From: a phage
DNA: 64,000 nt
Strand: one strand, 5' to 3'
NCBI GenBank assembly: GCA_018027755.1
Contig: GCA_018027755.1_4098.1
Shown here: piece after piece, positions 4,780 to 20,856 of the stretch
Position numbering within the stretch: position 1 is the first letter of the stretch
How the letters are laid out: the number at the start of each line of letters is the position of its first letter
Notes under the pieces: model-generated
The model's database searches: none
Told to the model about the DNA's origin: nothing
What the model saw: the letters and a program-made list of their open reading frames with translations, nothing else
Position numbers and translations under genes: made by a program

Positions 4780-4780
4780 T

Positions 4781-5194: not shown

Positions 5195-5857
5195 ATGATG
5201 AAATCAAAATTAGGTTTGTTTTATAAAAACTATTTTGTTAAACAACGTAAATTTATAAAAAAATATTTCTCTGGCGAGAAGTCTAGTCCTATAATCTTTA
5301 AAAGACCAAGTTATAATACTTACTTAGCTGGTGCTAAACAGTCTAAGAAATTTATTACTCTTTTACATAAAAACAAAATTAAAGCTTCTTATGTTGAAAC
5401 GAGAAGAAACTCATCAATAACTCCTGGTGATTTTATTGAGTACGGATGTTTCAATATTAAGTACAATGATAATACATACTTTATGGATATTGATTGTAAT
5501 ACATCCAATCTTTTTAACATTGTAGTAAATCCATTAAAACAATATAATGTTTATGGTGATTCTATTATCAAATTAATCAAAAACAAAGATAGCTTTGATT
5601 TTGAAATAAATGTTTTAGATGATAATTTTGACGAAGTACCAGTAAACCCTGAAATCTGTGATATTTTAAACAGTTTAAAAGGTAGTACCTACAATATATC
5701 ATCTGATTTAATGTTTCAGTACTCATTAATCCATAAAGATATTGAAAAGTATATTGAATGCTCCAGAATTTTGAATTTTCTCTATGATGAATTTAAAAAG
5801 AGTTCTAAAATAACTGCATACACTTTGTACAATATTCCTAAAATGGTGAATCTTTAA
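5195..5857 (+). CDS. hypothetical protein (220 aa), basic N-terminus
   Basis: ORF track; AAGGAG RBS. Confidence 0.6.
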   Translation: MMKSKLGLFYKNYFVKQRKFIKKYFSGEKSSPIIFKRPSYNTYLAGAKQSKKFITLLHKNKIKASYVETRRNSSITPGDFIEYGCFNIKYNDNTYFMDIDCNTSNLFNIVVNPLKQYNVYGDSIIKLIKNKDSFDFEINVLDDNFDEVPVNPEICDILNSLKGSTYNISSDLMFQYSLIHKDIEKYIECSRILNFLYDEFKKSSKITAYTLYNIPKMVNL

Positions 5858-6261
5858 CAAATACAGTACTGGCAACTCCACCGTCTGTAATATATTGTCC
5901 AGTACTGTAAATTTGTATACCATCGGTTAAGTAAGTTCTGTATAAAGTTGCTGTAACATATACGTTATTCATATTCATCTCTATTGGTAGTACACATTTG
6001 GTATAGGCCGACACATCTGTTTGTGTACCTATACCCAATTGACCTGCGTTATCGCCTGTGTTATTACCAGTTGCGTAAACACCCAATGAAGTTATAATAT
6101 GATTAGAAAAATATGAATAACCCAAACTCTTGAGATTCTCTACTGTACAACGTACCATCTGACATAAGGGCAAAAACTGTCGTATCAGATGAAGCTATTT
6201 TTGTAACAGAAGGTTGTATGTTCTTTTTTGATGATGTGATAATTCTTCGAAAGGGTAGCAT
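5838..6261 (-). pseudogene. decayed MLPF-leader RCC1-like paralog (frameshifted, truncated)
   Basis: ATG 6261 after GGAGG gives MLPFRRIITSS..DGTLYSRE then stop after about 53 codons; GQLGIG-containing continuation is in another frame (track ORF 5838..6173). Confidence 0.55.
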
Positions 6262-6353
6262 TGTATCCTCCAAATGTAAATCGTTATTATATTTAGGACA
6301 AAAAAATGCCAGTACAAGGCACTGGCATAAAATCTAAGCAGAAGGCATATCCT

Positions 6354-6464
6354 TCATCTTAATAAATGAAAATTGTGTACCAGTATTTGTGGTTCCAATT
6401 TCTTTATTTCAGGAAGAGTTGGTTTAATATTTCCGTACTTTAACATTCTTCCAAAAGGTAACAT
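6354..6464 (-). pseudogene. MLPF-leader stub (36 codons)
   Basis: Canonical cassette upstream; MLPFGRMLKYGNIKP.. terminates after 36 codons. Confidence 0.5.
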
Positions 6465-6539
6465 AAATCCCTCCTTTATTCATTATACTATATTTAATAC
6501 AAAAAAAAAGAAAAGCCAGTATCAAGTACTGGCCCTATA
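6465..6539 (-). promoter_or_regulatory. array cassette boundary (terminator hairpin + TATAAT + AAGGAGG)
   Basis: Minus-strand reading: GCCAGTA..TACTGGC hairpin, T-run, TATAGTATAATGAATAAAGGAGG, ATG. Confidence 0.55.
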
Positions 6540-7889
6540 TTATTGTAAAGGTATTTCAGTCAAGGTACTATATGTTGTGCCATTATACACACCACGCCAG
6601 TATAATTTACCTTCAGTACTAACCACTAATAATCCATATGTTGTAAACCCAAGAGTACCACCAACATACATAGCATCTTTGATTTTAATACCAATGTCTT
6701 CATATGTAAATGAAGCGACTGCTCCCGCTTGCCATGAAGGACTAGCATAGTAATCACTATAAACACCATGTGCTTTATATATTGATGTTGTTCCGGGTTC
6801 AAAAATTACAGTTCCACAGTAGTTCATTCGTATTTTGGTACTGGATGAAGTTGGTACATTTATACCTACATCATCTTTAATCCCTGTAGTTAGGACGTTA
6901 AAACCACCCGCTACACGGTTGACGTCATTCGCACCGATTAGAAACATACCAACGTTGTAGCCCATATAATACACACTACTTGTACCATTCCAGAAAGAAA
7001 AACCACCACCATTACCACAGCGATATAGTTGTGAATTTGAGCAGTACATCATGCCTTCGTTTGTTGCATCAAAATCATCTGCTGTTCCGATTACAGCCAC
7101 TGTAGTCCACGTTTTAATCACTTGGTTTGTACTAGCTGGTTTTTGTATACCATATCGTATATTATATCCCTTACCTACGATTGTACCATCTTCTAATTTG
7201 GCATAAAGTACAGGTCTATTACCAACAAAATACACATTATTATGTGACATGTCTATTGTGCATCTTAATGAAACTGCTTTTTGTGTCAATTGATTATCTT
7301 TAGTAAAAGAAGTAAAGTAGTAATCTGATGTGGAGTTGTTTATTAAACCTTGAATCGACAAACCCATATACCAGATTTCACCATTAGTGTTCAATGCTGC
7401 CAAAATACAACTATATTTTGAAGTGTATGCTGGGGTTAATGATGTTGCTGGACCTTTATCATATCCACCACAGAATACCATTTCCACAACTTCACCTACG
7501 TTAGAAAAATAAGAAGATACATTTATAAAACCATTTGTTATAAAAGGTGCTGTAGTTATACTTGAATGTGTGAATATTCCATTTGCATATACACCACAAA
7601 AATGATATGAACCATCATTATCTTTAACTATTATTCCATTTGATAGTAGCCAAAAATTGTTTACATTTTTTCGTACTAATTCAATTCCTGTACCATTGGT
7701 TGGTGTTATACCAAAAGAAACATATTTTGTTTGACCAATACCATATAAATTTCCATTTGATGCTAATATTGCACCAAACCAATTACCACCACCATTCCTA
7801 TCATGACCCATACCAATGGAGTCGAATTTCTTCACAGTAGAGGCTTCAACTTTATTTCCGTACTTAACCATTCTCGCAAAAGGTAACAT
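6540..7889 (-). CDS. MLPF-leader RCC1-like beta-propeller repeat protein (449 aa)
   Basis: ORF track; leader MLPFARMVKYGN; G/T/S/N/Y-rich with RCC1-like G-x-N-x-x-G-Q/E/K-L/F-G-x-G repeats. Confidence 0.75.
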   Translation of the reverse strand: MLPFARMVKYGNKVEASTVKKFDSIGMGHDRNGGGNWFGAILASNGNLYGIGQTKYVSFGITPTNGTGIELVRKNVNNFWLLSNGIIVKDNDGSYHFCGVYANGIFTHSSITTAPFITNGFINVSSYFSNVGEVVEMVFCGGYDKGPATSLTPAYTSKYSCILAALNTNGEIWYMGLSIQGLINNSTSDYYFTSFTKDNQLTQKAVSLRCTIDMSHNNVYFVGNRPVLYAKLEDGTIVGKGYNIRYGIQKPASTNQVIKTWTTVAVIGTADDFDATNEGMMYCSNSQLYRCGNGGGFSFWNGTSSVYYMGYNVGMFLIGANDVNRVAGGFNVLTTGIKDDVGINVPTSSSTKIRMNYCGTVIFEPGTTSIYKAHGVYSDYYASPSWQAGAVASFTYEDIGIKIKDAMYVGGTLGFTTYGLLVVSTEGKLYWRGVYNGTTYSTLTEIPLQ

Positions 7890-7959
7890 AATTCCCTCCT
7901 TTATTCATTATACTATATTTAACCAAAAAGAAAAGCCAGTACAGAGTACTGGCATTGTA
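7890..7959 (-). promoter_or_regulatory. array cassette boundary (terminator hairpin + TATAAT + AAGGAGG)
   Basis: Same conserved cassette as at 6465. Confidence 0.55.
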
Positions 7960-9093
7960 TTAAGGTTTATTTTTATAATTAATTTCTACATAGTTACGTT
8001 GTGTTCCAGTATATCCTGGAACATTCCCTATATTTCCATTACCTGCACCAAACAGACGTTCTCCGACTGCAAAATATGTCCCATAGAAACAACCATCAAA
8101 CACAGGAACATCATTATAATTTGATATGTAATTATCCATTGAATCCATTCTAGTGTATGCAGTCAGAGTTACATTTGTACCTATACCATATGCACCATAA
8201 GGGTTAGTACCAGCAACATAATACCCAGTGGGTGTACATATTACTGGTGAATTTGCCCCTGATCTCGTGTGGATAAATCTAAATGTACCTTCAGGTACTG
8301 GTGCTTCTTTACTGAATAATGTTGTAGCTACTACTGGGTAATCAATACCATAACTATTACCACTCAACCACGTTTTACCATCACTATCTTTGAATAATGA
8401 ACAGGATTGTGTGCATCCGAACAGATTCAAATTGGTTACATTTGGAAATTTACTAATTTGTGTATATACCAGAACTGTGGTTGCGGCAGCACTACCAAGT
8501 TGTCCACGACCATTATCACCCGCACTGTACATGTACCCATCGGTCTTTAATATTATACTAGCGTTTCCTAAAATATCAAAATCAACAACATCCGTTTGTG
8601 TTAATGTAGCTATAGGATAACGAAAATTCACTGCCTCACCAGTACCAAATTGACAATTGGTGTTTACCCCACATCCATATAAGTTGCCGTTTTGCATTAA
8701 TATAAACAAACCTGTTGTCATTTTAATTTTCTTAATATTAAGAATATCTATATCTTGGAATATGTGTGTTACATTTACAAATGTGGTTGAGTTAACAGTA
8801 CTTGAACCATAATAAGAACCGTTCCCGCTACCAAAGAATTCATCGCCTTTTCTGTACATTGCACATAGACTGCCACCCCATACATCATCAACTCCAGTGT
8901 CAATTTGAATAACTGAAGTAACACTAGTTGTTGCACCAGTGCCAAGTTCACCACCTGAATTGAATCCAAAACCATACAAATCTCCACTTTCGGTGAGCAC
9001 CAAAACACTGTTATTGGTTGTGCATGAAATCTTTTTGATATTATTAGATGGTCTTTTATTTCCGTACTTAACCATTCTTGCAAAAGGTAACAT
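7960..9093 (-). CDS. MLPF-leader RCC1-like beta-propeller repeat protein (377 aa)
   Basis: ORF track; leader MLPFARMVKYGN; SGDLYGFGFNSGGELGTG-type repeats. Confidence 0.75.
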   Translation of the reverse strand: MLPFARMVKYGNKRPSNNIKKISCTTNNSVLVLTESGDLYGFGFNSGGELGTGATTSVTSVIQIDTGVDDVWGGSLCAMYRKGDEFFGSGNGSYYGSSTVNSTTFVNVTHIFQDIDILNIKKIKMTTGLFILMQNGNLYGCGVNTNCQFGTGEAVNFRYPIATLTQTDVVDFDILGNASIILKTDGYMYSAGDNGRGQLGSAAATTVLVYTQISKFPNVTNLNLFGCTQSCSLFKDSDGKTWLSGNSYGIDYPVVATTLFSKEAPVPEGTFRFIHTRSGANSPVICTPTGYYVAGTNPYGAYGIGTNVTLTAYTRMDSMDNYISNYNDVPVFDGCFYGTYFAVGERLFGAGNGNIGNVPGYTGTQRNYVEINYKNKP

Positions 9094-9166
9094 GATTTCT
9101 CTCCTTTATCCATTATACTATATTTAATACAAATAAGAAAGCCAGTACAGAGTACTGGCTTTTACA
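9094..9166 (-). promoter_or_regulatory. array cassette boundary
   Basis: Conserved hairpin/T-run/TATAAT/AAGGAG cassette. Confidence 0.55.
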
Positions 9167-10357
9167 TTACAATTGTCTAGGTGTATCCAGAACATATCTA
9201 TTTGTTTTAGGACCACCATCATCATAAGTTCCGGTTGAATATATATTTTTCATATCAGCAGTTAGGAAAGTACGTAACGACCCTCGATATATTTTTATTT
9301 TATCATACATAGAATATGTTATTTCTGACGGCAATGGACATGCAGTAAATTTACCAATGGTAACATTAGAACCAACACCCAATGAACCAGCATAACTACT
9401 CGCATTTAAACCTGTTGCATATACACCAGTACTCGTAACTAGTATACTAGATTGTGCTGGGTATCCAGTATGGATTGAATAATAAGTACCGGGTGGTAAT
9501 GTAGCACTATTATTTCCTAAAACTCCATTAACAGTGCTAGATGTAGTTTTATTTCCCCATGCCCCATTATTAGCGTTACCACCTACTAGGAACTGACGTG
9601 CTCCTGTACTTGGATTCTCTACTAAAGCACTGACAGCACCAAATGAACAAACAGTATATTGTAATGTTTTTGTATATGTGGTACTTGGCTTATACAAAGT
9701 ATATTCATTAAATGGTGTCCATGTGGTACTAGTACTTATGCCAGATGTACTACCACCAATATATAAATTATTTTGTGTATCAAAAAACATTGCACAGTAA
9801 TTTGTTGACTGTATTTGTGCAATATCTACATCTGGTGTTACCGCTTTAACAAATGAACCATCTGATATTTGATAAGTAGTTCCTGTACCATCTGCGAATT
9901 GTCTAGCACTATTCCACCCTGTACTCCATATTGTATTATTATCCATTAAGAAAGTAAACCATGTAGTACCTGCATACATCTGTTTAATTGAAGTACTTGA
10001 ACTTTGTTTGTACAATTTTTCAATATATTGGTTATAACTTAAAAATGATGTAGTACTAGTTTCTAAACCAATATGACTACCATATCCACAATAAAAATAA
10101 TTTAAGTCCTTATCTTGAACTAACAAAGTTCCTTGTGTCATCCAGCAATCTTTGACATTTTCTCTAATTAATGTCCACGACCTTACTGCATTATTATTTC
10201 CTCTACCAAACTTCCCAAAACTATTACTGCCTCGTGCGTATAGTTGACCGTCGGTATAAAGTACAACAACCTCAGTATCAGTTGGTATTATTTTCTTAAT
10301 TTGTAGTGGTACAGGCACAATATTCCCATAATTCATCATTCTTGCAAAAGGTAACAT
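9167..10357 (-). CDS. MLPF-leader RCC1-like beta-propeller repeat protein (396 aa)
   Basis: ORF track; leader MLPFARMMNYGN; body near-identical to 13612..14802. Confidence 0.75.
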   Translation of the reverse strand: MLPFARMMNYGNIVPVPLQIKKIIPTDTEVVVLYTDGQLYARGSNSFGKFGRGNNNAVRSWTLIRENVKDCWMTQGTLLVQDKDLNYFYCGYGSHIGLETSTTSFLSYNQYIEKLYKQSSSTSIKQMYAGTTWFTFLMDNNTIWSTGWNSARQFADGTGTTYQISDGSFVKAVTPDVDIAQIQSTNYCAMFFDTQNNLYIGGSTSGISTSTTWTPFNEYTLYKPSTTYTKTLQYTVCSFGAVSALVENPSTGARQFLVGGNANNGAWGNKTTSSTVNGVLGNNSATLPPGTYYSIHTGYPAQSSILVTSTGVYATGLNASSYAGSLGVGSNVTIGKFTACPLPSEITYSMYDKIKIYRGSLRTFLTADMKNIYSTGTYDDGGPKTNRYVLDTPRQL

Positions 10358-10436
10358 AATTCCCCTCCTTATTCATTATACTATATTTAATACAAATAAG
10401 AAAGCCAGTATCAAGTACTGGCATAGTTTTATAGTA
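10358..10436 (-). promoter_or_regulatory. array cassette boundary
   Basis: Conserved cassette. Confidence 0.55.
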
Positions 10437-11546
10437 TCATTTCGGCATTGTAATTGCAGACCATGAGTTCGTGGTAATAGGACCTGGCACATACAAAAAA
10501 GAACCACAAGCATAAATTTGATTATTACCATCAAATACTATACTAAAATGTGCACATGTGTATAATGCTGATTTTTCTGGGTTGTAATTATCTAAAGTTA
10601 GTGTATTGGTGAATCTACTCAAACCACCACCAGAACCATTTCTACCAAATTCACCAGTACTATATATCTTTCCTTCGGTTGTTGCGTACATATTAACATA
10701 TGAAGTTGCACTTGATTTTGATATTTTATGTATCTTACTATCAATAGTAGTGGAGTTAAATGCAAATGGATATACTTGTGTGTTCGTTGTAATACCGTTA
10801 CCAAGTTGACCAACATACTGCCAACCTGCGTTGTATATATTGCTGGCTGAATAAGCAAGAGTACCAGTACTGTTACCACCAAATAGTTTAACACTTGTTA
10901 ACCTTCTTACTAGTGTAGTATACTGTCCGGGACTTACGCCAAGTGAACCATACCCACTGCTCCCGCAACCGAGAAGTTCATTATTTGATGTTAATATTAA
11001 TGTGTTATTCTGTGTACCCAATATATCAAGGACTGTATTAGCTCCGGTATTAACAACTGAAACAAAAGTACTCTGAGCCGTGGAATACCCACCACCGAGT
11101 GAATAGTTACCATTCATGCCTCTACCATAAACAATCGAACCACTAGCATCAACGTAGTGCATTGTATCTGCACCAATTGATATCATTTTAATATTAGATA
11201 TATGTGGAAATGAAGAAGTAACATTCAAACCACCCAACGGAATCATAGTATTTCCTGTGCCTAATTGTGTGGTAACTCCATGCATTATGAATTCTTCACC
11301 CTTGAGATAAAGAATATTGTACGCACCAGCCCATGCATCAGTAACACCTTCTGAAATTAATATCCAAGTATTTCTTGTTGCTGTATTTTCAACGTTTAAC
11401 TGCAAATACGTATTAACCCCACAACCATAAAGTGAGCCATCGCCATAGAGGACGTACAAATTATCAAGACCGCACAGTACTTTCTTTATCTTTGGAGCTT
11501 CAGGTGCAATATTTCCGTACTTAACCATTCTTGCAAAAGGTAACAT
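10437..11546 (-). CDS. MLPF-leader RCC1-like beta-propeller repeat protein (369 aa)
   Basis: Track ORF trimmed to MLPF ATG; AGGAGTG RBS only 8 nt after upstream gene stop. Confidence 0.7.
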   Translation of the reverse strand: MLPFARMVKYGNIAPEAPKIKKVLCGLDNLYVLYGDGSLYGCGVNTYLQLNVENTATRNTWILISEGVTDAWAGAYNILYLKGEEFIMHGVTTQLGTGNTMIPLGGLNVTSSFPHISNIKMISIGADTMHYVDASGSIVYGRGMNGNYSLGGGYSTAQSTFVSVVNTGANTVLDILGTQNNTLILTSNNELLGCGSSGYGSLGVSPGQYTTLVRRLTSVKLFGGNSTGTLAYSASNIYNAGWQYVGQLGNGITTNTQVYPFAFNSTTIDSKIHKISKSSATSYVNMYATTEGKIYSTGEFGRNGSGGGLSRFTNTLTLDNYNPEKSALYTCAHFSIVFDGNNQIYACGSFLYVPGPITTNSWSAITMPK

Positions 11547-11554
11547 ATTCACTC

Positions 11555-12730
11555 CTATTCTGGTAAAATCATTTTCTTCATTTTAACTTGTTGTGTACCT
11601 GGACTCTGTTCCTGAAACATAGACCCGTTACCACACCAGTACACCTCATTAGTACCCACTAACGCGTATAACACACCAGAACCACCTTGTACTGAAAATG
11701 CATTAACATCTGGTGCAACATCCATATCCTCATATTGTACCTGGTGGTAATAAGATCTTTCTGATGCAGTAGTAACAGGCCAACCAAGAGGAACACCACT
11801 ACCACATGTATAAAGTTTACCATTCTGTGTCATTGCCATTATAAAATAATTCAAACTGTGATTGTTCATCGACCCAGCATCTGGTATAATACCACTAATT
11901 GCAGGAGTGGTACTAAATGGACTCATGATAATAGTAGTGTCGCCATACCCTATTCCTAAACAATAATCAGTGTTTTTTCCAGCAGTATATACATTAATCT
12001 TATTTCTATTGGATGTAAGTACTGAAGTGGTTTCAGGAGTACATGAAATACCAATAACTGTTCCAGATATATCAGTACTTACCGTAAATGTCGAAAGTTT
12101 AGAAGAACCTGACCCTAAGTTGTAACTTGCGTTATTCCCACATCTGTAGTATTGATTATTTTTAACATAATGGAAAGCATCCCCAGCCGTTGTTCCCGCA
12201 ATTATAGTAACTCCAGTAGCAATCTGAATTGGCGTTGTTTTTCTACCAGTAACACCCAATGCACCTCCTGTATTACGCCCAATCCCATATAAGTCCCCAT
12301 TACTTAACAAAATCAATAACGCACCATTTGATGCAGTAGTTTCAGTAGCAGCTATATCTACTACTGTAGTAAGTGCTGGTATTGTAGACAATAAAGATGT
12401 GATATTAGTCCATCCAGGAACTGGTGATGCAGATACACCGACATAACCCATTTGACCAGCTAAGTAAAATTCTCCGTCAGTCGTAAGTATAATTGTTGCT
12501 GCAAAGAAGCACCAAACATTAGAAACTTTATATGGACACTGTACCCACCCATTTTGCACATACGCAGTGCTATTATTTCCTAGCATATAGTGTGCACCAT
12601 TTCCACGTAGATATAAGTTACCACTATCAAATAACATACCCATATGTGATGGAGATGTACTTATCTTCATAACACCTGAAGGTGCTGGAACTCTGTTTCC
12701 GTACTTAACCATTCTTGCAAAAGGTAACAT
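11555..12730 (-). CDS. MLPF-leader RCC1-like beta-propeller repeat protein (391 aa)
   Basis: Track ORF trimmed to MLPF ATG after AAGGAGG; leader MLPFARMVKYGN. Confidence 0.7.
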   Translation of the reverse strand: MLPFARMVKYGNRVPAPSGVMKISTSPSHMGMLFDSGNLYLRGNGAHYMLGNNSTAYVQNGWVQCPYKVSNVWCFFAATIILTTDGEFYLAGQMGYVGVSASPVPGWTNITSLLSTIPALTTVVDIAATETTASNGALLILLSNGDLYGIGRNTGGALGVTGRKTTPIQIATGVTIIAGTTAGDAFHYVKNNQYYRCGNNASYNLGSGSSKLSTFTVSTDISGTVIGISCTPETTSVLTSNRNKINVYTAGKNTDYCLGIGYGDTTIIMSPFSTTPAISGIIPDAGSMNNHSLNYFIMAMTQNGKLYTCGSGVPLGWPVTTASERSYYHQVQYEDMDVAPDVNAFSVQGGSGVLYALVGTNEVYWCGNGSMFQEQSPGTQQVKMKKMILPE

Positions 12731-12801
12731 ATTTCCTCCTTTATTCATTATACTATATTTAATACAAAAAGAAATGCCAGTATCAAGTACTGGCCTATAT
12801 T
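12731..12801 (-). promoter_or_regulatory. array cassette boundary
   Basis: Conserved cassette. Confidence 0.55.
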
Positions 12802-13539
12802 TTAGACTGAATTGTTAGGATAATATCTCCCACGTCCCCATATTATTCGCACAGCACCACCACCAGCAGCCGTATAAGAAAAATTATCCCATATACTACC
12901 ACCACCACCATACATCTTACCAGCACCACCACTACCAGCACCACCATTATATGAACCATCGTATCTACCGCCAATACCATTAGCACCTTGAACAATGATA
13001 CCAGTACCACCACCCGTACCAATGAACGAGGTATTATAGAATGCACCACCACCACCGCCGCCGCCAGCACCATTTTCACCAGTGATTGCATCTCCGTTAC
13101 CACCTTTACCAGTGTAGCCACCAGCACCACCACCAATGACTGCACCACCACTTACACCAGCGTTGCCCCCATTACCACCACCATCATTAATAGCGTTAGC
13201 AGCTTTCCCACCTAGTCCACCAACCCTATATTCACCAGTGAAGCTAACACATAGTTTTTCAGTTCCACGATATAAACCGTTTTCAACTGCTGTAGTAGTG
13301 TTGGGATGTGTAAGAGAAACACTTAAGTACTCACCACTAGTAACCGGAATATTATTACGCCACGATAAGCCGCCGCCAGCACCACGTTGACCACCCGGCG
13401 AAATAACACATACTGATATTTCGGTAACGCTAGCAGGAACTGTAAATTGTGTTGTTCCTATTGTCGTGATTAATTGTTCACCATGTGGCTTATATTCAAT
13501 TTCATTCCCGTACTTAATCATTCTTCCAAAAGGTAACAT
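12802..13539 (-). CDS. MLPF-leader glycine-rich protein (245 aa)
   Basis: ORF track; leader MLPFGRMIKYGN but body is Gly-rich (runs of GGG/GxG) and unlike the RCC1-like paralogs. Confidence 0.7.
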   Translation of the reverse strand: MLPFGRMIKYGNEIEYKPHGEQLITTIGTTQFTVPASVTEISVCVISPGGQRGAGGGLSWRNNIPVTSGEYLSVSLTHPNTTTAVENGLYRGTEKLCVSFTGEYRVGGLGGKAANAINDGGGNGGNAGVSGGAVIGGGAGGYTGKGGNGDAITGENGAGGGGGGGAFYNTSFIGTGGGTGIIVQGANGIGGRYDGSYNGGAGSGGAGKMYGGGGSIWDNFSYTAAGGGAVRIIWGRGRYYPNNSV

Positions 13540-13611
13540 AATTCCCTCCTTTATTCATTATAATATATTTAATACAAAAAAGAAAAGCCAGTACAAAGTA
13601 CTGGCATTATA
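13540..13611 (-). promoter_or_regulatory. array cassette boundary
   Basis: Conserved cassette. Confidence 0.55.
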
Positions 13612-14802
13612 TTATAACTGTCTTGGAGTATCCAGTACATATCTATTTGTACGAGGACCACCATCATCATCAGTTCCTGTTGAATATATATTTTTCATAT
13701 CAGCAGTTAGGAAAGTACGATACGAACCGCGATATATTTTAATTTTATCATACATAGAATATGTTATTTCTGACGGCAATGGACATGCAGTAAATTTACC
13801 AATGGTAACATTAGAACCAACACCCAATGTGCCAGCATAACTACTCGCATTTAAACCAGTTGCATATACACCTGCACTCGTAACTAGTATACTAGATTGT
13901 GTTGGGTATCCAGTATGAATTGAATACAAAGTACCGGGTGGTAAGGTTGTACTATTATTTCCTAAAACTCCATTAACAGTGCTAGATGTAGTTTTATTTC
14001 CCCATGCTCCATTATTAGCTAATCCACCAACTAGAAACTGACGTGCTCCTGTATTTGGATTCTCCACCAAAGCACTGACTGAACCCATTGAGCATCCAGT
14101 GTATTGTAACGTTTTTGTGTATGTGGTACTTGGCTGATATAAAGTATATTCATTATATAAAGTCCATGTAGTGCTGGAACTTATACCGGATGTACCACCA
14201 CCAATATATAAATTATTTTGTGTATCAAAAAACATTGCACAGCTATTTGTTGACATTATTTGTGCAATATCAACATCTGGTGTTACAGCTTTAACAAATG
14301 AACCATCGGTTATTTGTTGAGTTTTTCCAGTACCATCAGCGAATTGTTTAGCCCCACTCCACCCAGTACTCCATATTGTATTATTATCCATTAAGAAAGT
14401 AAACCATGTAGTACCTGCATACATCTGTTTAATTGAAGTACTTGAACTTTGTTTGTACAATTTTTCAATATATTGGTTATAACTTAAAAATGATGTAGTA
14501 CTAGTTTCTAAACCAATATAACCACCATAGCCACAATAAAAATAATTTAAGTCCTTATCTTGTACTAACAAAGTTCCTTCTGACATCCAACAATCGTTAA
14601 CGTTTTCTCTAATTAATGTCCATGTTCTTAATGCAGTGTTGTTTCCTCTCCCAAACTTCCCAAAACTATTATTGCCTCGTGCGTATAGTTGACCATCAGT
14701 ATAAAGTACAACAACATCACTATTGATTGGTATTATTTTCTTAATTTGAAGAGGCTCAGGTGTAATATTTCCATAATCAAACATTCTAACAAAAGGTAAC
14801 AT
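13612..14802 (-). CDS. MLPF-leader RCC1-like beta-propeller repeat protein (396 aa)
   Basis: Track ORF 13612..14859 trimmed to MLPF ATG; leader MLPFVRMFDYGN; body near-identical to 9167..10357. Confidence 0.75.
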   Translation of the reverse strand: MLPFVRMFDYGNITPEPLQIKKIIPINSDVVVLYTDGQLYARGNNSFGKFGRGNNTALRTWTLIRENVNDCWMSEGTLLVQDKDLNYFYCGYGGYIGLETSTTSFLSYNQYIEKLYKQSSSTSIKQMYAGTTWFTFLMDNNTIWSTGWSGAKQFADGTGKTQQITDGSFVKAVTPDVDIAQIMSTNSCAMFFDTQNNLYIGGGTSGISSSTTWTLYNEYTLYQPSTTYTKTLQYTGCSMGSVSALVENPNTGARQFLVGGLANNGAWGNKTTSSTVNGVLGNNSTTLPPGTLYSIHTGYPTQSSILVTSAGVYATGLNASSYAGTLGVGSNVTIGKFTACPLPSEITYSMYDKIKIYRGSYRTFLTADMKNIYSTGTDDDGGPRTNRYVLDTPRQL

Positions 14803-14873
14803 ATTTCCTCCTTTATTCATTATACTATATTTAATACAAAAAAGAAAAGCCAGTATCAAGTACTGGCCTATAT
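14803..14873 (-). promoter_or_regulatory. array cassette boundary
   Basis: Conserved cassette. Confidence 0.55.
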
Positions 14874-16043
14874 TTAAACTGGCGAATCTAATATAAATTC
14901 TAAACTACTAATGCCACCATATGTGACATCTGTTCCCGTGCTATATACAAAATTACCATCAGTTATATAAGTTCGGTTATAACTACCTGCCATCTGTGAC
15001 TTACTATAATCAAACCCATCAGGTACGATTGCTTTGGTATATACTAATGCATTAGTAGATGTACCAATACCTAACATACCAGCTTGTGTAGATTGATTGT
15101 AGCCGCAACAATATATACCATCTGTTGTAGCAATAACTTGGTTATAATATGAAGTATTGTTAGCAATGCTTACTACATCACCAGGTGGCATTAGTGATGC
15201 TGTTTGTACCTCAAATGCTCTATAATCTTTGAGAGAACCATCTTTCCCATCTGCTTGTGCACCAAATATTCTTGAACCACCATTTGCGATGATAGTTTTA
15301 CCAGTGGGATCAGTGCCTATTGCCATTGCCATTGAAGTACCATTATTCACATAGTACTTTATATTAATTGTATTACTTAAGCTGGTAGGAGCACCATAAT
15401 ATATATTATATAACTTACTTCCTGAACTTGTAACTGCATTGACTCTTCCTGTATAAAATAACCATCCTTGGTTTGTAACATAACCGTGCATTAAATTACT
15501 TGCAAACAATTTAACAGGTAATTGATTTGCTGCGGTAGGAACAGTACTTTTGACGAATCTACCAGAAACATGGTTAATTGTTGTCCCATCACCCAACTGA
15601 CCATCCGACCCTACTCCAGTACTCCATATTGTTTGGTCTGATAGTAACACACTTGTAGTCTGATAACTAACGGCTATATCTAATATTGGTAATGTTAATG
15701 TATTGAATATAGGCATAGCAGATGTCCATATTGATACTCCTGACCCTTTCATACCAACAGTTGTTGAACTTCCACTGTACCATATTTCATTATTGCTTTT
15801 CTTAACAACTATCGACGTGGCTCCCATCCAAAAATCTTCAACACCAGAAGTACTAAAAGTCCATGTAGTAACAGTATTTTTGTGACCTAAACCCAAAATA
15901 CCATATGCATTATCACCACGCACATATAAATCACCACTGTTTGTTAAAACAGCAACATTATAGTTGTTAGCAAGTATTTTTTTAATATTTGGTTTAGCAG
16001 GTGCAATATTCCCGTAATCAAACAATCTCACAAAAGGTAACAT
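14874..16043 (-). CDS. MLPF-leader RCC1-like beta-propeller repeat protein (389 aa)
   Basis: Track ORF trimmed to MLPF ATG; leader MLPFVRLFDYGN; SGDLYVRGDNAYGILGLG repeats. Confidence 0.7.
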   Translation of the reverse strand: MLPFVRLFDYGNIAPAKPNIKKILANNYNVAVLTNSGDLYVRGDNAYGILGLGHKNTVTTWTFSTSGVEDFWMGATSIVVKKSNNEIWYSGSSTTVGMKGSGVSIWTSAMPIFNTLTLPILDIAVSYQTTSVLLSDQTIWSTGVGSDGQLGDGTTINHVSGRFVKSTVPTAANQLPVKLFASNLMHGYVTNQGWLFYTGRVNAVTSSGSKLYNIYYGAPTSLSNTINIKYYVNNGTSMAMAIGTDPTGKTIIANGGSRIFGAQADGKDGSLKDYRAFEVQTASLMPPGDVVSIANNTSYYNQVIATTDGIYCCGYNQSTQAGMLGIGTSTNALVYTKAIVPDGFDYSKSQMAGSYNRTYITDGNFVYSTGTDVTYGGISSLEFILDSPV

Positions 16044-16114
16044 AATTCCTCCTTTATTCATTATACTATATTTACCCCAAAAAGAAATGCCAGTACTTGA
16101 GTACTGGCATTATG
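16044..16114 (-). promoter_or_regulatory. array cassette boundary
   Basis: Conserved cassette. Confidence 0.55.
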
Positions 16115-17224
16115 TTATTTTGGTAAATCAATTTTAGTAAAGACTGCAACATCTGCACTTGCACCTGGAATGGCGTAATACGATCCAGTACTATATACAT
16201 TCCCGTCTTTGGTTAATAATGATGTTAATCCGTCACTAAAAGCAACATCACTAATCTCACTAACTTCTACAGGTAATTGTAAATTAGCAGCACTATAGAT
16301 AGCACCCGTTTGAGAATTGTTTAATCCCAAACCACGGTTTCCCCCAATACCTTTCTGATATGCACTAGTTAATATAATTTGCGTAGCCGTGCTTGTTGCC
16401 TCTGAATTTGTCATAAACAAAGGTGAATTATTAGGTAAAGTACTTACAGGAACTGCTTTGAATGTAGTTGAATCTGAACTAAGAAAGTTTGGAGTTGTAC
16501 CACATGTGAAATATGATGTACCATTATAGTAATTGAGTGTATGTCCACCAATAGCTGCATCTATTACACCAGAACTACGCAGTCCCCAAATGTTAACTTG
16601 TGTTCTGTTCCCTGTGCCATGTAATCCACGGTCATTCCACCCTGAACTATATAACTTATTATCTATGCTAATATACATACTATCATTAGGAGTAGACATA
16701 ACTTTACGCACATTAGAAGCACATAGTGTTAATGTATATATTGATGAAGAACCAATCCCCAATACACCACGGTATCCATTAGCCCCAGCACCATAGAGTA
16801 CTGAACTTGAACTGAGTACAAATATTACACCACCATTGCATACAATATTAGCAATTTGATTCACAGGAATTGTATTTGTAAACCACTCCGTTCTATCAAC
16901 TAATGTAGTACTGTAAGAAGTTGTTGATGATGATGTGAACCAAAATGTTTCACCTGATGTCCATATCGTATTGTCATTTTTAATAATAACAAGTGTTCGT
17001 CCTCCAGTGAAAAAATTAGAAACATCTGCACTTACTAATGTCCAAGAAGATACCGTGTTTTTATTACCATTTCCAGATTCACCACCTTGATTTCTGCCTA
17101 TGTAATACAATTCATGTGAATCAGTCAATACGAATTGACCTTGAGTAGAAGCACCAACTTTAATTATATTTTTAGGACCAGAGGTAATATTCCCATAATC
17201 AAATAGTCTTACAAAAGGTAACAT
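16115..17224 (-). CDS. MLPF-leader RCC1-like beta-propeller repeat protein (369 aa)
   Basis: Track ORF trimmed to MLPF ATG; leader MLPFVRLFDYGN; RBS 8 nt after upstream gene stop. Confidence 0.7.
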   Translation of the reverse strand: MLPFVRLFDYGNITSGPKNIIKVGASTQGQFVLTDSHELYYIGRNQGGESGNGNKNTVSSWTLVSADVSNFFTGGRTLVIIKNDNTIWTSGETFWFTSSSTTSYSTTLVDRTEWFTNTIPVNQIANIVCNGGVIFVLSSSSVLYGAGANGYRGVLGIGSSSIYTLTLCASNVRKVMSTPNDSMYISIDNKLYSSGWNDRGLHGTGNRTQVNIWGLRSSGVIDAAIGGHTLNYYNGTSYFTCGTTPNFLSSDSTTFKAVPVSTLPNNSPLFMTNSEATSTATQIILTSAYQKGIGGNRGLGLNNSQTGAIYSAANLQLPVEVSEISDVAFSDGLTSLLTKDGNVYSTGSYYAIPGASADVAVFTKIDLPK

Positions 17225-17232
17225 AATTCCTC

Positions 17233-18435
17233 CTATTGTTGCCATAACTGCGTTGGCATTAATGTTAGTGTAGTAATACTATAAGTGCCATCAGGCAATC
17301 TACCACCATTACCATTCCAGCCACCACATGCATATAATTTATAATCTTTAGTAATTATTATGGTTCTGCTCCAATCTTTAGATGCCATAAGAACATTGTC
17401 ATAACCACCACTTATTGCATTAAGATTAAAAATATTCCAAGTCCTAACTAATGTATTAGTTCCATTACCTTCTTGACCGTATCCGTTAGCACCACTACTT
17501 CTAACATATGGTGCGTATTGTGCCATAGGTGCACCAATTGATGCATTTCCCATATTACTTGGACAAATAAAAGTACTGTACTTACTTACATCAACCGTGA
17601 CCGATGTGTTCCTAATTGGTGTTAGCTGATTTACCGATGTAGTCGTACCATTACCAGCTTGTCCAGTACTGTTAGCCCCGCTATAATATACAGGCCCACC
17701 AGTAGTAAACCACCAAGTAACATCGTATGTAGTACTAATATGTTCGACATCACTCATCACATATTTGTTCAAATATATCATAGAACTAGCACCACAACCA
17801 CTTTCACCGAAGTTATCCTTACCACAAAACCATGCCTTTTTATTTGATTTAATATAGTGCGTTCCTTGTAATGAACATGCCATATGTGTAACTTCACCCA
17901 TATTAGTCATAACTGTTAGTGTAGGTATGGAATTTTGATTACCAGACCCACATTCACCATTGGTATTTCTTCCACACGCAATTACTCTACCATCGGTTAA
18001 TAATATTCTAGTACTTTCACCTATATATACACTCTTGATCATATTAGCCATAACACCAATTTTATTAAATGAAGCAGTAACATCAGTCCATGTTCTCAAA
18101 TAACCATTAACAGGTGTTGCATCTCCATAATCAGAAAATGCACCAACCGACCCAGTGTAGTATATTTTATTATCCAAATCAATCATCAATGAACCTTGAA
18201 CACCAAGCCAAAAGGCTGCACATCGCGTTGCAAGTACTGTAAATGACGCAACTGCTGCTGAATTCCCAAGACCAAATTGATAAAAGTTATTACTACCATA
18301 ACCATATAAAGTATTAGTTGGGCTATGTAGATACATACAGTTTGTATAATGTTGTTGTAAAACATCTGAGAACTCTACAGGTTCTGGACCTGGTGCAATA
18401 TTTGCGTACTTAACCATTCGTGCAAAAGGTAACAT
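17233..18435 (-). CDS. MLPF-leader RCC1-like beta-propeller repeat protein (400 aa)
   Basis: ORF track; leader MLPFARMVKYAN. Confidence 0.7.
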   Translation of the reverse strand: MLPFARMVKYANIAPGPEPVEFSDVLQQHYTNCMYLHSPTNTLYGYGSNNFYQFGLGNSAAVASFTVLATRCAAFWLGVQGSLMIDLDNKIYYTGSVGAFSDYGDATPVNGYLRTWTDVTASFNKIGVMANMIKSVYIGESTRILLTDGRVIACGRNTNGECGSGNQNSIPTLTVMTNMGEVTHMACSLQGTHYIKSNKKAWFCGKDNFGESGCGASSMIYLNKYVMSDVEHISTTYDVTWWFTTGGPVYYSGANSTGQAGNGTTTSVNQLTPIRNTSVTVDVSKYSTFICPSNMGNASIGAPMAQYAPYVRSSGANGYGQEGNGTNTLVRTWNIFNLNAISGGYDNVLMASKDWSRTIIITKDYKLYACGGWNGNGGRLPDGTYSITTLTLMPTQLWQQ

Positions 18436-18507
18436 ATTTCCCTCCTTTATTCATTATACTATATTTAATACAAAAAGAAATGCCAGTATCAAGTACTGGC
18501 ATAGTAT
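18436..18507 (-). promoter_or_regulatory. array cassette boundary
   Basis: Conserved cassette. Confidence 0.55.
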
Positions 18508-19635
18508 TCAAAAAGGTAAATCAATTTGCTTAGTAATAATAGTATCTAACGGTATTGAACACAATGAGAAATTCTTTCCACCCGTATTTTTAGGATTATA
18601 TCCATTCATCCATACATTATTACCTTCGTAAAATGTATTCCAGTATAAAGACCCACTATATCGTGTATTCGAATTGAACGATGTAAAATTGAATTCTTGA
18701 AATGCTGTAAAATATGGAAGGGAACTTGAACTACTTCCCGTAAATGGGGTATGCCCAGTTGCTATTAGTTTGTTTGTATCTGCATTAATTAAAAATACAA
18801 CACTAGTCGAATAGTCCAACGAATCAGGATGATATATATTACTCATATCACCTATAGTAAAACCAACATCAAAAACTTTACTATGTGCACCACTACCAGC
18901 AAAAGTAGTTCCAGTTGCATATATTTTATTATCAGATGTTATCATTACAAAACCAACACCAGAAACAAAACTGCATTTTATATCATAAGATATATCATCA
19001 AACAACGGAACAAATGTGGTTGCATCACCCGATGTTGCTTTAACTTGAAAGCTGTTATTTGAACCTGAACCATATACAGTTCCATCGTTTTTAATCTTAA
19101 ACAATGTATCGCCAAGGTAACCGCCAAATATATTATCCACATTAGTGTCAAGTACAGTCCACGCTGAAACATAATTTTTATGTCCTAAACCTAATGCACC
19201 ACTTCGATTCCATCCTCTTCCATAAAGTGTTCCGTCTTTCATTAATATAAATGCTGTATAACCACATAACATTTTTTTAATTTGGGTAACATCTATACCA
19301 GTGAAATACACAGCCCAGTCAGTATATCCTTGTTGGAAAGTATTAGAATTCGTGAATGCATATGTTGAACCTGAACCATATATTTTATCACCTTTAATAA
19401 CAACGGAAAACGATCCTAACCATAAGTCATCAACTTCAGTTGTGATTTGTTGAACTGCTCCTAACGATACAAACTTTGTACTTAAACCCGCATTATAGTT
19501 TGAATCTTCACCGTGTGCATATACAGTGCCATCTTGCATTAGAAACATTTCAAGAGTGTAACTAACAACACTTTTCTTTATATTATTAACTTCGATTATA
19601 TTCCCATAATCAAACATTCTAACAAAAGGTAACAT
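18508..19635 (-). CDS. MLPF-leader RCC1-like beta-propeller repeat protein (375 aa)
   Basis: ORF track; leader MLPFVRMFDYGN. Confidence 0.7.
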   Translation of the reverse strand: MLPFVRMFDYGNIIEVNNIKKSVVSYTLEMFLMQDGTVYAHGEDSNYNAGLSTKFVSLGAVQQITTEVDDLWLGSFSVVIKGDKIYGSGSTYAFTNSNTFQQGYTDWAVYFTGIDVTQIKKMLCGYTAFILMKDGTLYGRGWNRSGALGLGHKNYVSAWTVLDTNVDNIFGGYLGDTLFKIKNDGTVYGSGSNNSFQVKATSGDATTFVPLFDDISYDIKCSFVSGVGFVMITSDNKIYATGTTFAGSGAHSKVFDVGFTIGDMSNIYHPDSLDYSTSVVFLINADTNKLIATGHTPFTGSSSSSLPYFTAFQEFNFTSFNSNTRYSGSLYWNTFYEGNNVWMNGYNPKNTGGKNFSLCSIPLDTIITKQIDLPF

Positions 19636-19707
19636 AATTCCCTCCTTTATTCATTATACTTTATTTAATACAAATAAGAATTCCTGTATCGAGTACTGGC
19701 ATTCAAT
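19636..19707 (-). promoter_or_regulatory. array cassette boundary
   Basis: Conserved cassette. Confidence 0.55.
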
Positions 19708-20856
19708 TTATTGTAAAAAGGACATATCTACTTCTGTATAACTAAGAATGTTTTGACCAGCAATTCCACCCATTACTACTATTGCATACCCACAATAATA
19801 TAATTTCCCAGTGTCCGTAAGTATAAGTGAACCAGAAGGTGTTCTTACCAAATTACACGAACTATTAAAAGAAGTATACGAAGGAGTATAGGAGTACTGA
19901 TTAATATTATTACCAACACCTAATTGACCACCCCTATTCGAACCAGATGCATAAAGTACTTCATCTGCTTTGACAATATGTGATGCCATGTTAGCAACAC
20001 ATGCATATACACCATATACCCCTGTACTCAATAATGTAGGAGTCTTGTATTGAATATCAGTACTAGTAGATGTTCCACCTGTGCCAAATTCATTACCATA
20101 TTGTGCTCCGTACTGCTTCCCACATGCGTACAAATTATTATCCGATTTGATAAAAAATGTACTCTGATAACTTACATCAAAATCTATAACATCCGAAGAA
20201 ATCATCGTTACCCCAGTAATCGAAGTTTGATTACCAGTACCCAACTGGTAGTAATAGTTAAAACCACAACCCCATAAAGTATTATCTTCTCGCAAATAAA
20301 TGTTACCAACAGCCTTTTTAACAGATGTTATAGTACTGACCTTCTTGAATGTATTAAATGAATCAATGTTAGTACCATCTCCAAAGGAGGATATGTTCGA
20401 TGCGTTATTAGCACCACAACAATATAATGTCCCATCCTTCAGTACTAAATTTACCTTCATATCATTAAAACTGCTCATGTACTCAATATCAGATACACTA
20501 ATACCACCTGATGTTATCCACGTAGTACAGTCCGTCCATAACGTCTTCCTATCAGTTACCCCAGTAAATGCCTTCGTGTTACCAGTGATAAACACTTTAC
20601 CAGTACCCTTTTCTTCATACAATTGACAATCACTACTGTTATCTTCCAATAAAACCCTCTGTACATTCTCTGCACAAAGAATAAATTTACTCGAAGCTAC
20701 TCCTGTACCAGTACCCCAATTCGTCGCAGAAGATGCATACAACTTGTGTGTTAGTGTATCATGCAAATACATAGAACCACTAGAATATATTTTAAAACGC
20801 CCTTCTTTCTCAGGTATAATATTCCCATAATCAAACATTCTAACAAAAGGTAACAT
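19708..20856 (-). CDS. MLPF-leader RCC1-like beta-propeller repeat protein (382 aa)
   Basis: Track ORF trimmed to MLPF ATG; leader MLPFVRMFDYGN. Confidence 0.7.
   Translation of the reverse strand: MLPFVRMFDYGNIIPEKEGRFKIYSSGSMYLHDTLTHKLYASSATNWGTGTGVASSKFILCAENVQRVLLEDNSSDCQLYEEKGTGKVFITGNTKAFTGVTDRKTLWTDCTTWITSGGISVSDIEYMSSFNDMKVNLVLKDGTLYCCGANNASNISSFGDGTNIDSFNTFKKVSTITSVKKAVGNIYLREDNTLWGCGFNYYYQLGTGNQTSITGVTMISSDVIDFDVSYQSTFFIKSDNNLYACGKQYGAQYGNEFGTGGTSTSTDIQYKTPTLLSTGVYGVYACVANMASHIVKADEVLYASGSNRGGQLGVGNNINQYSYTPSYTSFNSSCNLVRTPSGSLILTDTGKLYYCGYAIVVMGGIAGQNILSYTEVDMSFLQ

Follow-up and report, generated by a model that had tools for sequence, protein, structure and literature searches.

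A probable virion-incorporation tag shared by unrelated proteins of jumbo phages and encoded at a site of recombination between tandem genes

Results

The 64,000-nt stretch of DNA analysed in this work (contig GCA_018027755.1_4098.1, “the window”) comes from a 121Q/PBECO4-like jumbo coliphage of the genus Asteriusvirus. Its minus strand carries a tandem array of 12 intact genes and two remnants (5838-20856), whose products begin with M-L-P-F and share one short N-terminal peptide, called here the tag (consensus MLPFxRMxxYGN). The tag heads unrelated protein bodies in several genera of RaK2-like jumbo phages, most tagged proteins are detected in purified virions, and in related arrays the recombination junctions are located at the 3′ edge of the DNA formed by the intergenic cassette and the tag, the sole sequence common to all units. 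The reading we favour, and regard as probable, is that the tag is a virion-incorporation (docking) signal whose DNA, together with the cassette, serves as portable homology for gene shuffling.

One tag on two kinds of cargo in the window

In its fuller form the tag reads MLPF-x-R-[ML]-h-x-Y-[GA]-N (12 residues) and is followed by a short proline-rich linker. Fourteen ATG-Leu-Pro-Phe starts were present in the window, on the minus strand only and all within 6103-20856; there was no further one on either strand elsewhere in the 64 kb. Eleven of the 12 intact products were RCC1-like, and the twelfth was a glycine-rich protein of 245 residues (12802..13539). All nine RCC1-like proteins included in the Pfam scan matched WD40_RLD (PF25390; E values from 1e-11 to 1e-31, below the 150-bit cut-off for the full domain), and eight of them exceeded the cut-off of RCC1_2 (PF13540) and/or RCC1 (PF00415), the product of 16115..17224 reaching 21.2 of 22 bits. 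The two RCC1-like proteins left out of the scan (7960..9093 and 6540..7889) align with the scanned paralogs, and the second one matches the same PHROG family. The bodies of the 11 RCC1-like paralogs were only 18-28% identical to one another, and seven of the 14 invariant columns of their alignment belonged to the tag (M1, L2, P3, F4, R6, Y10 and N12). The glycine-rich protein starts with MLPFGRMIKYGN and had no Pfam match at E≤0.01, whereas its neighbours matched RCC1, RCC1_2 or WD40_RLD. An earlier note on this DNA had proposed that the leader is modular, being attached in the glycine-rich gene to a body unrelated to the RCC1-like paralogs, and this was confirmed.

Several haplotypes of the tag were distinguished: type A (ARMVKYGN, GCA AGA ATG GTT AAG TAC GGA AAT), type B, and the recurrent type C (ARMMNYGN, GCA AGA ATG ATG AAT TAT GGG AAT), which has the synonymous codons TAT GGG as in type B. 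In Asteriusvirus, codons 1-4 (ATG TTA CCT TTT) were invariant in all the intact copies, the degenerate copy at the end of the array alone being different, and each tag type had fixed synonymous choices; concerted evolution is therefore operating. In other genera, synonymous sites varied: among 35 distinct tagged proteins (described below), Pro3 was encoded by CCA (28), CCT (3), CCC (2) or CCG (2), Tyr10 by TAC (22) or TAT (13), and Gly11 by GGA, GGG or GGT. As the amino acids were kept while the synonymous sites changed, and as the tag was also kept by genes lacking an upstream cassette, the constraint acts on the peptide.

Position 9 (K/D/N) was freely variable in other genera, where a second tag subclass, MLPF[PS]I[MIL][NS]xYGN, was also found. 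As a separate observation, positions 6 and 8 appear to co-vary in RaK2-like phages (MLPF-[PSA]-[RQ]-[LMI]-hydrophobic-x-YGN vs. MLPF-[PS]-I-[MIL]-[NS]-x-YGN), R or Q being paired with a hydrophobic residue and I with N or S; the I class was seen mostly on RCC1-like bodies of ~380 residues and on Kelch bodies. A ribosomally synthesized and post-translationally modified peptide (RiPP)-like leader or a secretion leader was considered and rejected, as judged from the sequences: the tag is devoid of the hydrophobic core typical of signal peptides, and its cargo is made up of folded domains (200-450 residues).

The tag and its cargo in other phages

Using degenerate DNA for the pattern M-L-P-F-x-x-(xTx)-(xTx)-x-Y-G-N, a scan of IMG/VR recovered 16 loci, only on jumbo-phage contigs of 348-378 kb: 121Q (inside the array only), CBB, GAP32 and Yersinia phage fHe-Yen9-04 (both verified), a 357,154-bp contig and three uncultured contigs. 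The fetched fragments contained 35 distinct tagged proteins (slightly relaxed pattern), with RCC1-like, Kelch (PF24681, PF13964 and others), LamG/ConA-like (PF13385) and glycine-rich bodies, and several bodies without Pfam match. The tag spans several RaK2-like jumbo-phage genera and at least four unrelated body types classifiable by Pfam, plus unclassified ones, and the modularity of the leader is thus not confined to the two cargo types of the window. One uncultured 355-kb contig (minus strand, start at 8416) encoded a tagged protein of 667 residues that, by eye, has an RCC1-like start and a Kelch-like end; if this reading of the domains is right, the tag may also head two-domain cargo.

The same bodies were followed into other phages. 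A tblastn search with the glycine-rich protein recovered the CBB “structural protein” gp144, which starts with MLPFSPLIVYGN, and a PVP-SE1 homolog without the tag. Of 120 glycine-rich homologs, only the two closest had the full tag and two more started with MLPF without the Y-[GA]-N end; many others, including those on contigs of ~150 kb, started with M[LI]E[LM][LM]. The PVP-SE1 homolog (gp018) starts with MFEMMLATSE, and further starts of this kind were MIELLAISG and MLEMLTVG. A jelly-roll cargo family of CBB and GAP32 aligned from residue 1 in jumbo phages, but only from residue 14-22 in smaller phages (~145-150 kb, plus the 213-kb PCH45); its 4MG homolog (gp182, annotated as “virion structural protein”) starts with MEEMLLVGGG. 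The start peptide of two unrelated bodies is thus MLPF in RaK2-like jumbo phages and of the MxEMLL type (M-x-E-[ML]-[ML]-L) in Vequintavirinae. The latter may be a second, lineage-specific N-terminal tag, and the existence of lineage-specific start peptides on the same bodies fits a tag matched to a lineage-specific partner.

Tagged proteins in virions

CBB has 11 tagged genes, located in the minus-strand clusters gp425-431 and gp442-443 plus gp144 and gp247, which were matched by gene order and domain content to the numbers used in its proteome (CBB_554-548, 537-536, 144 and 247). The virion table obtained by electrospray ionization tandem mass spectrometry (ESI-MS/MS) lists CBB_144, 247, 536, 537, 548, 549, 551, 552 and 553, each found by 1-8 peptides and with a coverage reaching 50.7% (PMC5259590), that is, nine of the 11 tagged proteins once the published table is mapped to the tagged genes. 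In phAPEC6, gp003, 005, 006, 007, 009 and 010 were detected in virions (PMC7247149), and all six are tagged genes of the array. GAP32 gp1, an RCC1-like tagged protein, has been reported as a structural protein, and the virion dataset of JP4 included three tagged proteins (1-2 peptides each). Most tagged proteins are, in summary, detected in purified virions. Hair-like appendages, so far unexplained, decorate the tail in phAPEC6 and CBB and, in phAPEC6, the capsid as well (for phAPEC6, PMC7247149).

Recombination at the edge of the cassette and tag

The window was compared with the syntenic arrays of ten related Asteriusviruses (121Q, phAPEC6, fEgEco12, ECO103 4-12-1, CMSTMSU, PBECO4, WPEC3, G17, JNE01 and ph0011); CMSTMSU, which has many frameshifts, entered in the tag counts only. 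Tagged-gene bodies were clustered at ≥75% identity, giving 32 groups (OG). The copy-number comparison suggested in the earlier note gave between 3 (ph0011) and 16 (ECO103, WPEC3) tagged genes or fragments of more than 30 codons per phage, in varying order.

Forty ortholog pairs from nine body groups had different leaders (at least 3 nt differences in codons 5-12) on bodies diverged by no more than 3% (nt 61-360). The differences of these pairs cluster in nt 13-57, with breakpoints at nt 33-57 of the genes. One example was WIN_7889 vs. WPEC3_21140, with 16 differences in the 42 positions of nt 13-54 and one in the following 420 (nt 55-474; Fisher p=2e-15); WIN_10357 vs. fEgEco12_19053 (12/42 then 5/420, p=3e-8), WIN_10357 vs. 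ph0011_22114 (11/42 then 9/420, p=4.5e-8) and WIN_11546 vs. fEgEco12_16980 (7/42 then 7/420, p=1e-5) followed the same pattern. OG7 orthologs with bodies 98.5-99.1% identical carried ARMVKYGN, TRMVKYGN, VRMIKYGN or VRMFDYGN, and the OG9 gene carried ARMVKYGN in the window and VRLFDYGN in WPEC3 on bodies 99% identical. The sequence upstream of the WPEC3 OG9 gene was wholly different, which fits a crossover at the tag joining the body to another upstream neighbour. The OG10 genes of 121Q and G17 differed at 8 positions confined to nt 22-39, with no difference in nt 61-360. In G17 this patch was identical to the C-type tag of both immediate neighbours, the signature of short-tract gene conversion between adjacent paralogs.

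The outcomes observed were tag variants swapped on near-identical bodies, short conversion patches, insertions and deletions, and the junctions fall at the 3′ edge of the cassette-plus-tag DNA. Recombination, which the earlier note had proposed, was found at the leader/body boundary in these 40 ortholog pairs. The comparison that the note had drawn with cassette-shuffling systems was, in the programmed sense, not borne out: each intact copy has its own ribosome-binding site (RBS) and ATG, there were no silent donor cassettes lacking expression signals in the array, and neither a recombinase nor a reverse transcriptase was found inside it, where no open reading frame (ORF) of at least 60 residues is clear of the array genes (flanking genes were left out of the Pfam scan). 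The leftover short frames in the array overlap tagged genes or cassettes. Judged from these sequences, shuffling occurs between phage genomes and on an evolutionary time scale, with no sign of programmed switching.

A strict alternation of tags (B A B A B A B A B) was observed in the nine distal genes of fEgEco12 (10399-21496 of the fetched fragment). It was not reproduced in WPEC3 or in the window, and may reflect chance or selection against adjacent identical repeats.

The two OG1 genes of the window

The earlier note had described 9167..10357 and 13612..14802 as identical at most positions, with A-type and B-type leaders respectively, and had seen in them a leader exchange between copies. 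Both genes encode 396 residues and align without gaps at 89% protein identity (352/396; 90% for the coding DNA), a clear relationship that falls short of near-identity. The leaders do differ (MLPFARMMNYGN vs. MLPFVRMFDYGN), but that of 9167..10357 is haplotype C and not A. In a coding-only alignment, the differences were distributed as 13/42 (nt 13-54), 23/186 (nt 55-240), 3/180 (nt 241-420), 52/420 (nt 421-840) and 27/348 (nt 841-1188). The leader divergence therefore runs on into the body and this pair is not a clean leader swap; such continuity, here partial, had been named in the earlier note as evidence against its own reading. The near-identity of nt 241-420 (p=1.7e-5 with respect to the rest of the body) may represent a conversion patch or a conserved segment, most OG1 alleles being alike there.

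Each of the ten other phages had exactly one OG1 gene or fragment. The glycine-rich gene or a fragment of it was present in seven of the ten, each time with the OG1 copy directly upstream, which is the position of 13612..14802 in the window. This copy is the JNE01-type allele (98% identity, 0 differences in the first 240 nt). The other copy, 9167..10357, is inserted at a place that is empty in fEgEco12, with OG7 and OG20 as neighbours, and is a mosaic allele of the phAPEC6/ph0011/fEgEco12 type (95.5-97.4% identity to the genes of these phages). It matches phAPEC6 from the cassette through the tag to nt ~780, with 0-3 differences per 60 nt, and is closer to ph0011 and fEgEco12 in its 3′ part. 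Because each copy is closer to the alleles of other phages, the OG1 pair is not a duplicate with a later leader exchange; the two genes are diverged alleles of two phage lineages, joined in one array by insertion of a whole unit.

Predicted structures and cargo composition

The AlphaFold2 (AF2) model of the product of 9167..10357, built on an alignment of 11 sequences (the window paralogs), was all-beta with repeated groups of strands (predicted template modelling score, pTM, 0.75; predicted local distance difference test, pLDDT, 69.7) and had poorly defined blades at residues 200-290. Residues 1-13 were coil with pLDDT below 50, and the first strand began at residue 20. The glycine-rich protein was modelled with higher confidence (29-sequence alignment, pLDDT 90.8, pTM 0.88), again with a coil below 50 (residues 1-11) and a first strand at residue 20. 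The tag is thus predicted to be an unstructured N-terminal extension outside the folded body. The best Foldseek matches of the glycine-rich model in the PDB were the fiber of cyanophage Pam3 (E 1.4e-4, probability 1.00), chains of the Bxb1 tail tip and the glycine-rich domain of ALK, the TM-scores to fiber proteins being low (~0.3). Distant glycine-rich homologs carry PF21722, and some of them also fibronectin type III (FN3).

PDB sequence searches with the RCC1-like and glycine-rich proteins gave eukaryotic RCC1, HERC and RPGR domains or nothing useful, and no solved virion structure containing them. Tagged proteins were poor in charge (K+R ~6%, pI 4.7-9.0) and rich in S/T/N/G (~40%), a composition that fits adhesin- or fibre-like proteins and not DNA-condensing ones. 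The names “regulator of chromosome condensation” and “DNA condensation protein” are inherited from eukaryotic RCC1 and find no support here.

The intergenic cassette

Most gene junctions were occupied by a block of ~70 nt, composed of a hairpin (GCCAGTACT-nnn-TACTGGC) with a T-run, the motif TTAAATATAGTATAATG and then AAAGGAGG followed by the ATG. The 26-nt promoter/Shine-Dalgarno (SD) block was present in 11 copies (0.00 expected) and the hairpin had 10 matches on the minus strand (0.01 expected), all of them inside the array; terminator-like sites were also in excess (23 vs. 6.0 expected), and the equivalent hairpins of G17 are annotated as terminators. With its resemblance to the late-promoter box of T4, the TTAAATA/GGTAAATA element, which tagged genes of CBB, GAP32 and uncultured relatives also have upstream, is a putative late promoter. 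Sigma-70-like promoters were not enriched (71 vs. 77.9 expected) and the best match in the cassette was 9/12 (CTGGCA-17-TATAGT), which gave no ground for calling it a sigma-70 promoter.

A terminator and/or promoter cassette precedes 10 of the 12 intact copies. The two cassette-free junctions (17233/17224 and 11555/11546) have only an RBS, and the downstream gene is still tagged. The genes on both sides of these junctions, OG4-OG2 (18435-16115) and OG15-OG7 (12730-10437), are separated by 8 nt containing the RBS, without terminator or promoter; the OG4-OG2 pairing was also present in PBECO4, G17, JNE01, ECO103 and WPEC3. This conservation suggests that the array contains bicistronic units.

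Features of the array and its surroundings

The coordinates of the array, its genes and the cassettes of the genes discussed above are summarized in Table 1. In a megablast search of 6000-21000 against GenBank phages, 37 records matched, all of them E. coli/Salmonella jumbo phages of the 121Q/PBECO4/phAPEC6 group (310-386 kb). The coverage was patchy (38% at most in one place, 85-96% identity), so the gene content at the array locus differs among close relatives. The OG8 remnant (6354-6476) has a clean internal deletion of ~1.04 kb with respect to G17, and what is left amounts to ~70 nt at the 5′ end plus ~60 nt at the 3′ end. The last copy of the array has a decayed tag (MLPF[RG]RIITSSK, no YGN) and was broken into short ORFs in every phage retaining it (6 of the 10 examined); copies at the same position include 121Q gp234/235 and others in phAPEC6, ECO103, PBECO4 and G17. 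A conserved pseudogene, or a gene expressed by way of a frameshift, may explain this pattern.

Table 1. Position of the tandem array of tagged genes, its members and selected cassettes in the window.
Feature	Coordinates	Strand	Remarks
Whole tandem array	5838..20900	-	12 intact tagged genes and 2 remnants, read right to left; syntenic arrays in ten related Asteriusviruses
RCC1-like, OG3, B tag	19708..20856	-	First gene of the array
RCC1-like, OG26, B tag	18508..19635	-	Intact ortholog absent from all ten arrays; frameshifted CMSTMSU with a fragment of 130 aa sharing the N-terminus
RCC1-like, OG4, tag MLPFARMVKYAN	17233..18435	-	
RCC1-like, OG2, tag MLPFVRLFDYGN	16115..17224	-	8 nt after OG4; RBS only, no cassette, tag kept
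RCC1-like, OG14, tag VRLFDYGN	14874..16043	-	G17 ortholog with GRMIKYGN and identical linker
RCC1-like, OG1, B-type tag MLPFVRMFDYGN	13612..14802	-	Canonical position, with the glycine-rich gene directly downstream; JNE01 ortholog at 98% identity
Glycine-rich cargo, 245 aa, tag MLPFGRMIKYGN	12802..13539	-	
RCC1-like, OG15, A tag	11555..12730	-	
RCC1-like, OG7, A tag	10437..11546	-	No upstream cassette
RCC1-like, OG1, C-type tag MLPFARMMNYGN	9167..10357	-	Second, ectopic copy between OG7 and OG20
RCC1-like, OG20, A tag	7960..9093	-	
RCC1-like, OG9, 449 aa, A tag	6540..7889	-	WPEC3 ortholog with VRLFDYGN and different upstream region
OG8 remnant, 36 codons, tag MLPFGRMLKYGN	6354..6464	-	
Degenerate last copy, MLPFRRIITSSK..., no YGN	5838..6261	-	Short ORFs
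Cassette upstream of 9167..10357	10358..10422	-	Hairpin GCCAGTACTTGATACTGGC with T-run, 10404-10422; TTAAATATAGTATAATG promoter-like motif and GGAGG RBS, 10363-10388
Cassette upstream of 13612..14802	14803..14867	-	Hairpin, 14849-14867; promoter/SD, 14807-14832
Cassette upstream of the glycine-rich gene	13540..13605	-	Hairpin, 13587-13605; promoter/SD, 13545-13570

Two runs of small paralogous genes are located on the plus strand beside the array. Seven tandem genes (2713-5152), encoding hydrophobic and probably membrane proteins of ~105-140 residues, adjoin it on one side; the same neighbourhood was seen in 121Q, G17 and other relatives, and the CBB “membrane proteins” gp434-436 adjoin the tagged cluster of that phage. 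A long tandem run of ORFs of ~60-70 residues (M-N/H-x-x-KEYY...L..I/L...) is divergent from the array (20959-24147 and beyond), and was seen in all the relatives examined (121Q gp249-265).

Discussion

In the mechanism proposed here, the array is a family of self-contained units, in which a terminator hairpin is followed by a promoter-like motif (TTAAATA/TATAAT), an RBS and one gene, and each gene encodes the tag followed by a small domain of ligand-binding type (an RCC1-like beta-propeller or a glycine-rich domain). The tag would be a virion-incorporation signal, most likely a docking peptide by which interchangeable binders would be plugged into a repeated external site of the particle, the “hairs” on the capsid or tail of phAPEC6 and CBB being candidates. 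The shared block would be used by homologous recombination or gene conversion, both inside one genome and between phages in co-infection, to reshuffle the cargo, and the two OG1 genes of the window would be one outcome of this reshuffling.

Several points weigh against this mechanism. We infer both the docking role of the tag and the promoter identity of the cassette motif, the latter in the face of a sigma-70 scan without enrichment; the site in the virion, the ligands, the docking partner and a need of the tag in incorporation are putative as well. The peptide support for virion association is thin for many proteins (1-4 peptides and 3-17% coverage in phAPEC6, 1-2 peptides in JP4), co-purifying contaminants being possible, and the JP4 data list proteins and not peptides, and so are silent on the presence of the tag in mature particles. 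The RCC1-like model was derived from a small alignment, the structural similarity of the glycine-rich model to fiber proteins is low, and low confidence at a protein terminus is common and no proof of a docking role. Finally, distinct docking specificities of the A, B and C types were considered, but with position 9 freely variable in other genera these types may be haplotypes of equivalent function.

Other explanations account for part of the observations. The tag could be a capsid-targeting sequence (CTS) like that of the T4 internal proteins, directing effectors into the prohead or inner body to be injected with the DNA (e.g. for anti-defence), with the array as the jumbo-phage counterpart of the hyperplastic T4 internal-protein locus. 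The logic would be the same, i.e. a short conserved N-terminal peptide, unrelated cargo and a hypervariable tandem locus in a T4-related myovirus; the low virion abundance of the tagged proteins and the fact that Kelch and propeller domains are also protein-binding modules would fit as well, and phAPEC6 has an inner body, to which the RCC1-like proteins were assigned by its authors as a proposal (PMC7247149). We nevertheless consider this unlikely, because the tag is unlike the T4 CTS in sequence, is not followed by a conserved protease site (linkers such as IVPVPLQIKK, KRPSNNIKK and ITSGPKNIIK, among many, are free of Glu), and heads cargo that is low in charge, unlike the basic DNA-associated internal proteins. 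The cargo, moreover, has lectin-like folds, and the glycine-rich body is similar to fiber and tail-tip proteins of the virion exterior and has distant homologs carrying FN3. A partner outside the virion could instead recognize the tag, for example a modifying enzyme, a host protein, or a chaperone or assembly factor of the phage, and the cargo would then associate with virions independently of the tag. This seems to us improbable: a disordered conserved terminal peptide is typical of short linear recognition motifs, and the lack of an identified docking partner would agree with it, but the strongest property common to the tagged proteins is their presence in virions, in three independent proteomes, and the specificity of the tag for a phage lineage agrees better with a structural partner in the phage than with a factor from the host.

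Explanations at the DNA level fare worse. It is very doubtful that the tag has no role as a protein and is a by-product of gene conversion homogenising a block of promoter, RBS and first codons. The invariance of the first four codons and the fixed synonymous choices of each tag type in Asteriusvirus would be expected from such a process; the conservation of the amino acids across genera while synonymous sites change, the retention of the tag at cassette-free junctions, the conservation of Y10, G/A11 and N12 far from the start codon, and the different N-terminal peptide shared by the same bodies in another phage lineage would not. The literal reading of the earlier note, i.e. a recent local duplication followed by leader exchange and programmed cassette switching, is now hardly tenable and was largely refuted by the comparison of orthologs: the 89% identity of the OG1 pair with different leaders, and the three differences in nt 241-420, which could reflect conversion between the copies, are outweighed by the closer relationship of each copy to that of another phage, by a divergence that goes past the leader, and by the absence of silent cassettes and of a recombinase in the array.

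The docking mechanism can be extended to a more specific model, which we put forward tentatively and as less probable than docking itself. The MLPF tag would be a universal plug for multivalent display in RaK2-like jumbo phages, a repeated external site (the centres of capsid hexamers, or the rings of “hairs” on the tail sheath, in phAPEC6 and CBB) being loaded with a mixture of quickly reshuffled lectin-like binders (RCC1-like, Kelch, LamG and glycine-rich domains). Tag subclasses (R6 with a hydrophobic residue at position 8 vs. I6 with N or S at position 8, possibly also A, B and C) would address different sites, and other phage lineages would run the same system with tags of their own, e.g. 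Vequintavirinae with MxEMLL.

The RCC1-like paralogs of 121Q-type phages have so far been treated as an unexplained expansion; one tag now links them to Kelch, LamG and glycine-rich virion proteins, and a single testable explanation is offered, in which interchangeable binders would be plugged into the particle. If true, likely components of the unexplained “hairy” decorations would have been identified, the variability in array copy number would be explained, and a very short natural tag would be available for loading foreign domains onto jumbo-phage particles.

Comparison with known systems

Swappable receptor-binding proteins with a conserved N-terminal anchor, the CTS of T4 and cassettes of the promoter-early stem-loop (PeSL) type are already established. 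What appears to be undescribed in the searchable literature, where a full-text search returned no published account of the tag, is this 12-residue peptide, its spread over at least four folds in several genera with up to 16 copies per genome, and the use of its DNA as a recombination block.

A close parallel is found in secondary receptor-binding proteins of the KP32gp38/KP34gp57 type, whose N-terminal “conserved peptide” docks onto the branching domain of the first receptor-binding protein (RBP1) (PMC13352976; PMC6872550). Experiments have shown that incorporation depends on this peptide and that it can be transferred to foreign cargo (PMC13352976). In both cases a short N-terminal peptide is located on unrelated bodies, which are exchanged behind it. 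The KP peptide has ~29 residues of unrelated sequence, heads trimeric beta-helix depolymerases and occurs once per genome, whereas the jumbo-phage tag has 12 residues, heads small propeller, lectin or glycine-rich domains and occurs in 3-16 copies per genome, with a docking role that is putative here. Branched tailspike systems, such as CBA120 TSP1-4 and RaK2 gp526-534, have conserved N-terminal anchor and XD domains (PMC10253068). They resemble the array in being multi-protein binding repertoires of the same phage clade, with conserved N-termini and variable C-terminal bodies, but their anchors are folded (~100 residues or more) and belong to trimeric fibres or spikes, in contrast with a 12-residue unstructured peptide on proteins that are probably monomeric, as judged from domain size and fold type only. 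The cohesin-dockerin system of the cellulosome, in which many cargo modules use one small tag for a repeated receptor, is a pure analogy.

The T4 CTS is an N-terminal tag of ~10 residues on the internal proteins IPI-IPIII, encoded in T4-type phages at a hyperplastic internal-protein locus. The array shares with it the short N-terminal tag, the unrelated cargo, the variable tandem locus and the presence of the tagged proteins in virions; MLPFxRMxxYGN is, however, unrelated in sequence, lacks a conserved site of the gp21 type (L/I-x-E), and carries cargo similar to external binders. PeSL are mobile regulatory cassettes of T4-type phages, which flank variable ORFs and provide homology for modular shuffling. 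As in the array, blocks with a stem-loop and promoter-like sequences are repeated between variable ORFs, and recombination junctions fall at the repeated block. Unlike in PeSL, the promoter-like motif of the array resembles a late type (TAAATA) more than an early sigma-70 one, its cargo belongs to one functional class, and its block reaches into the coding region, so that the tag is part of the recombining unit: a clear case of a protein-coding tag doubling as a homology block for gene shuffling.

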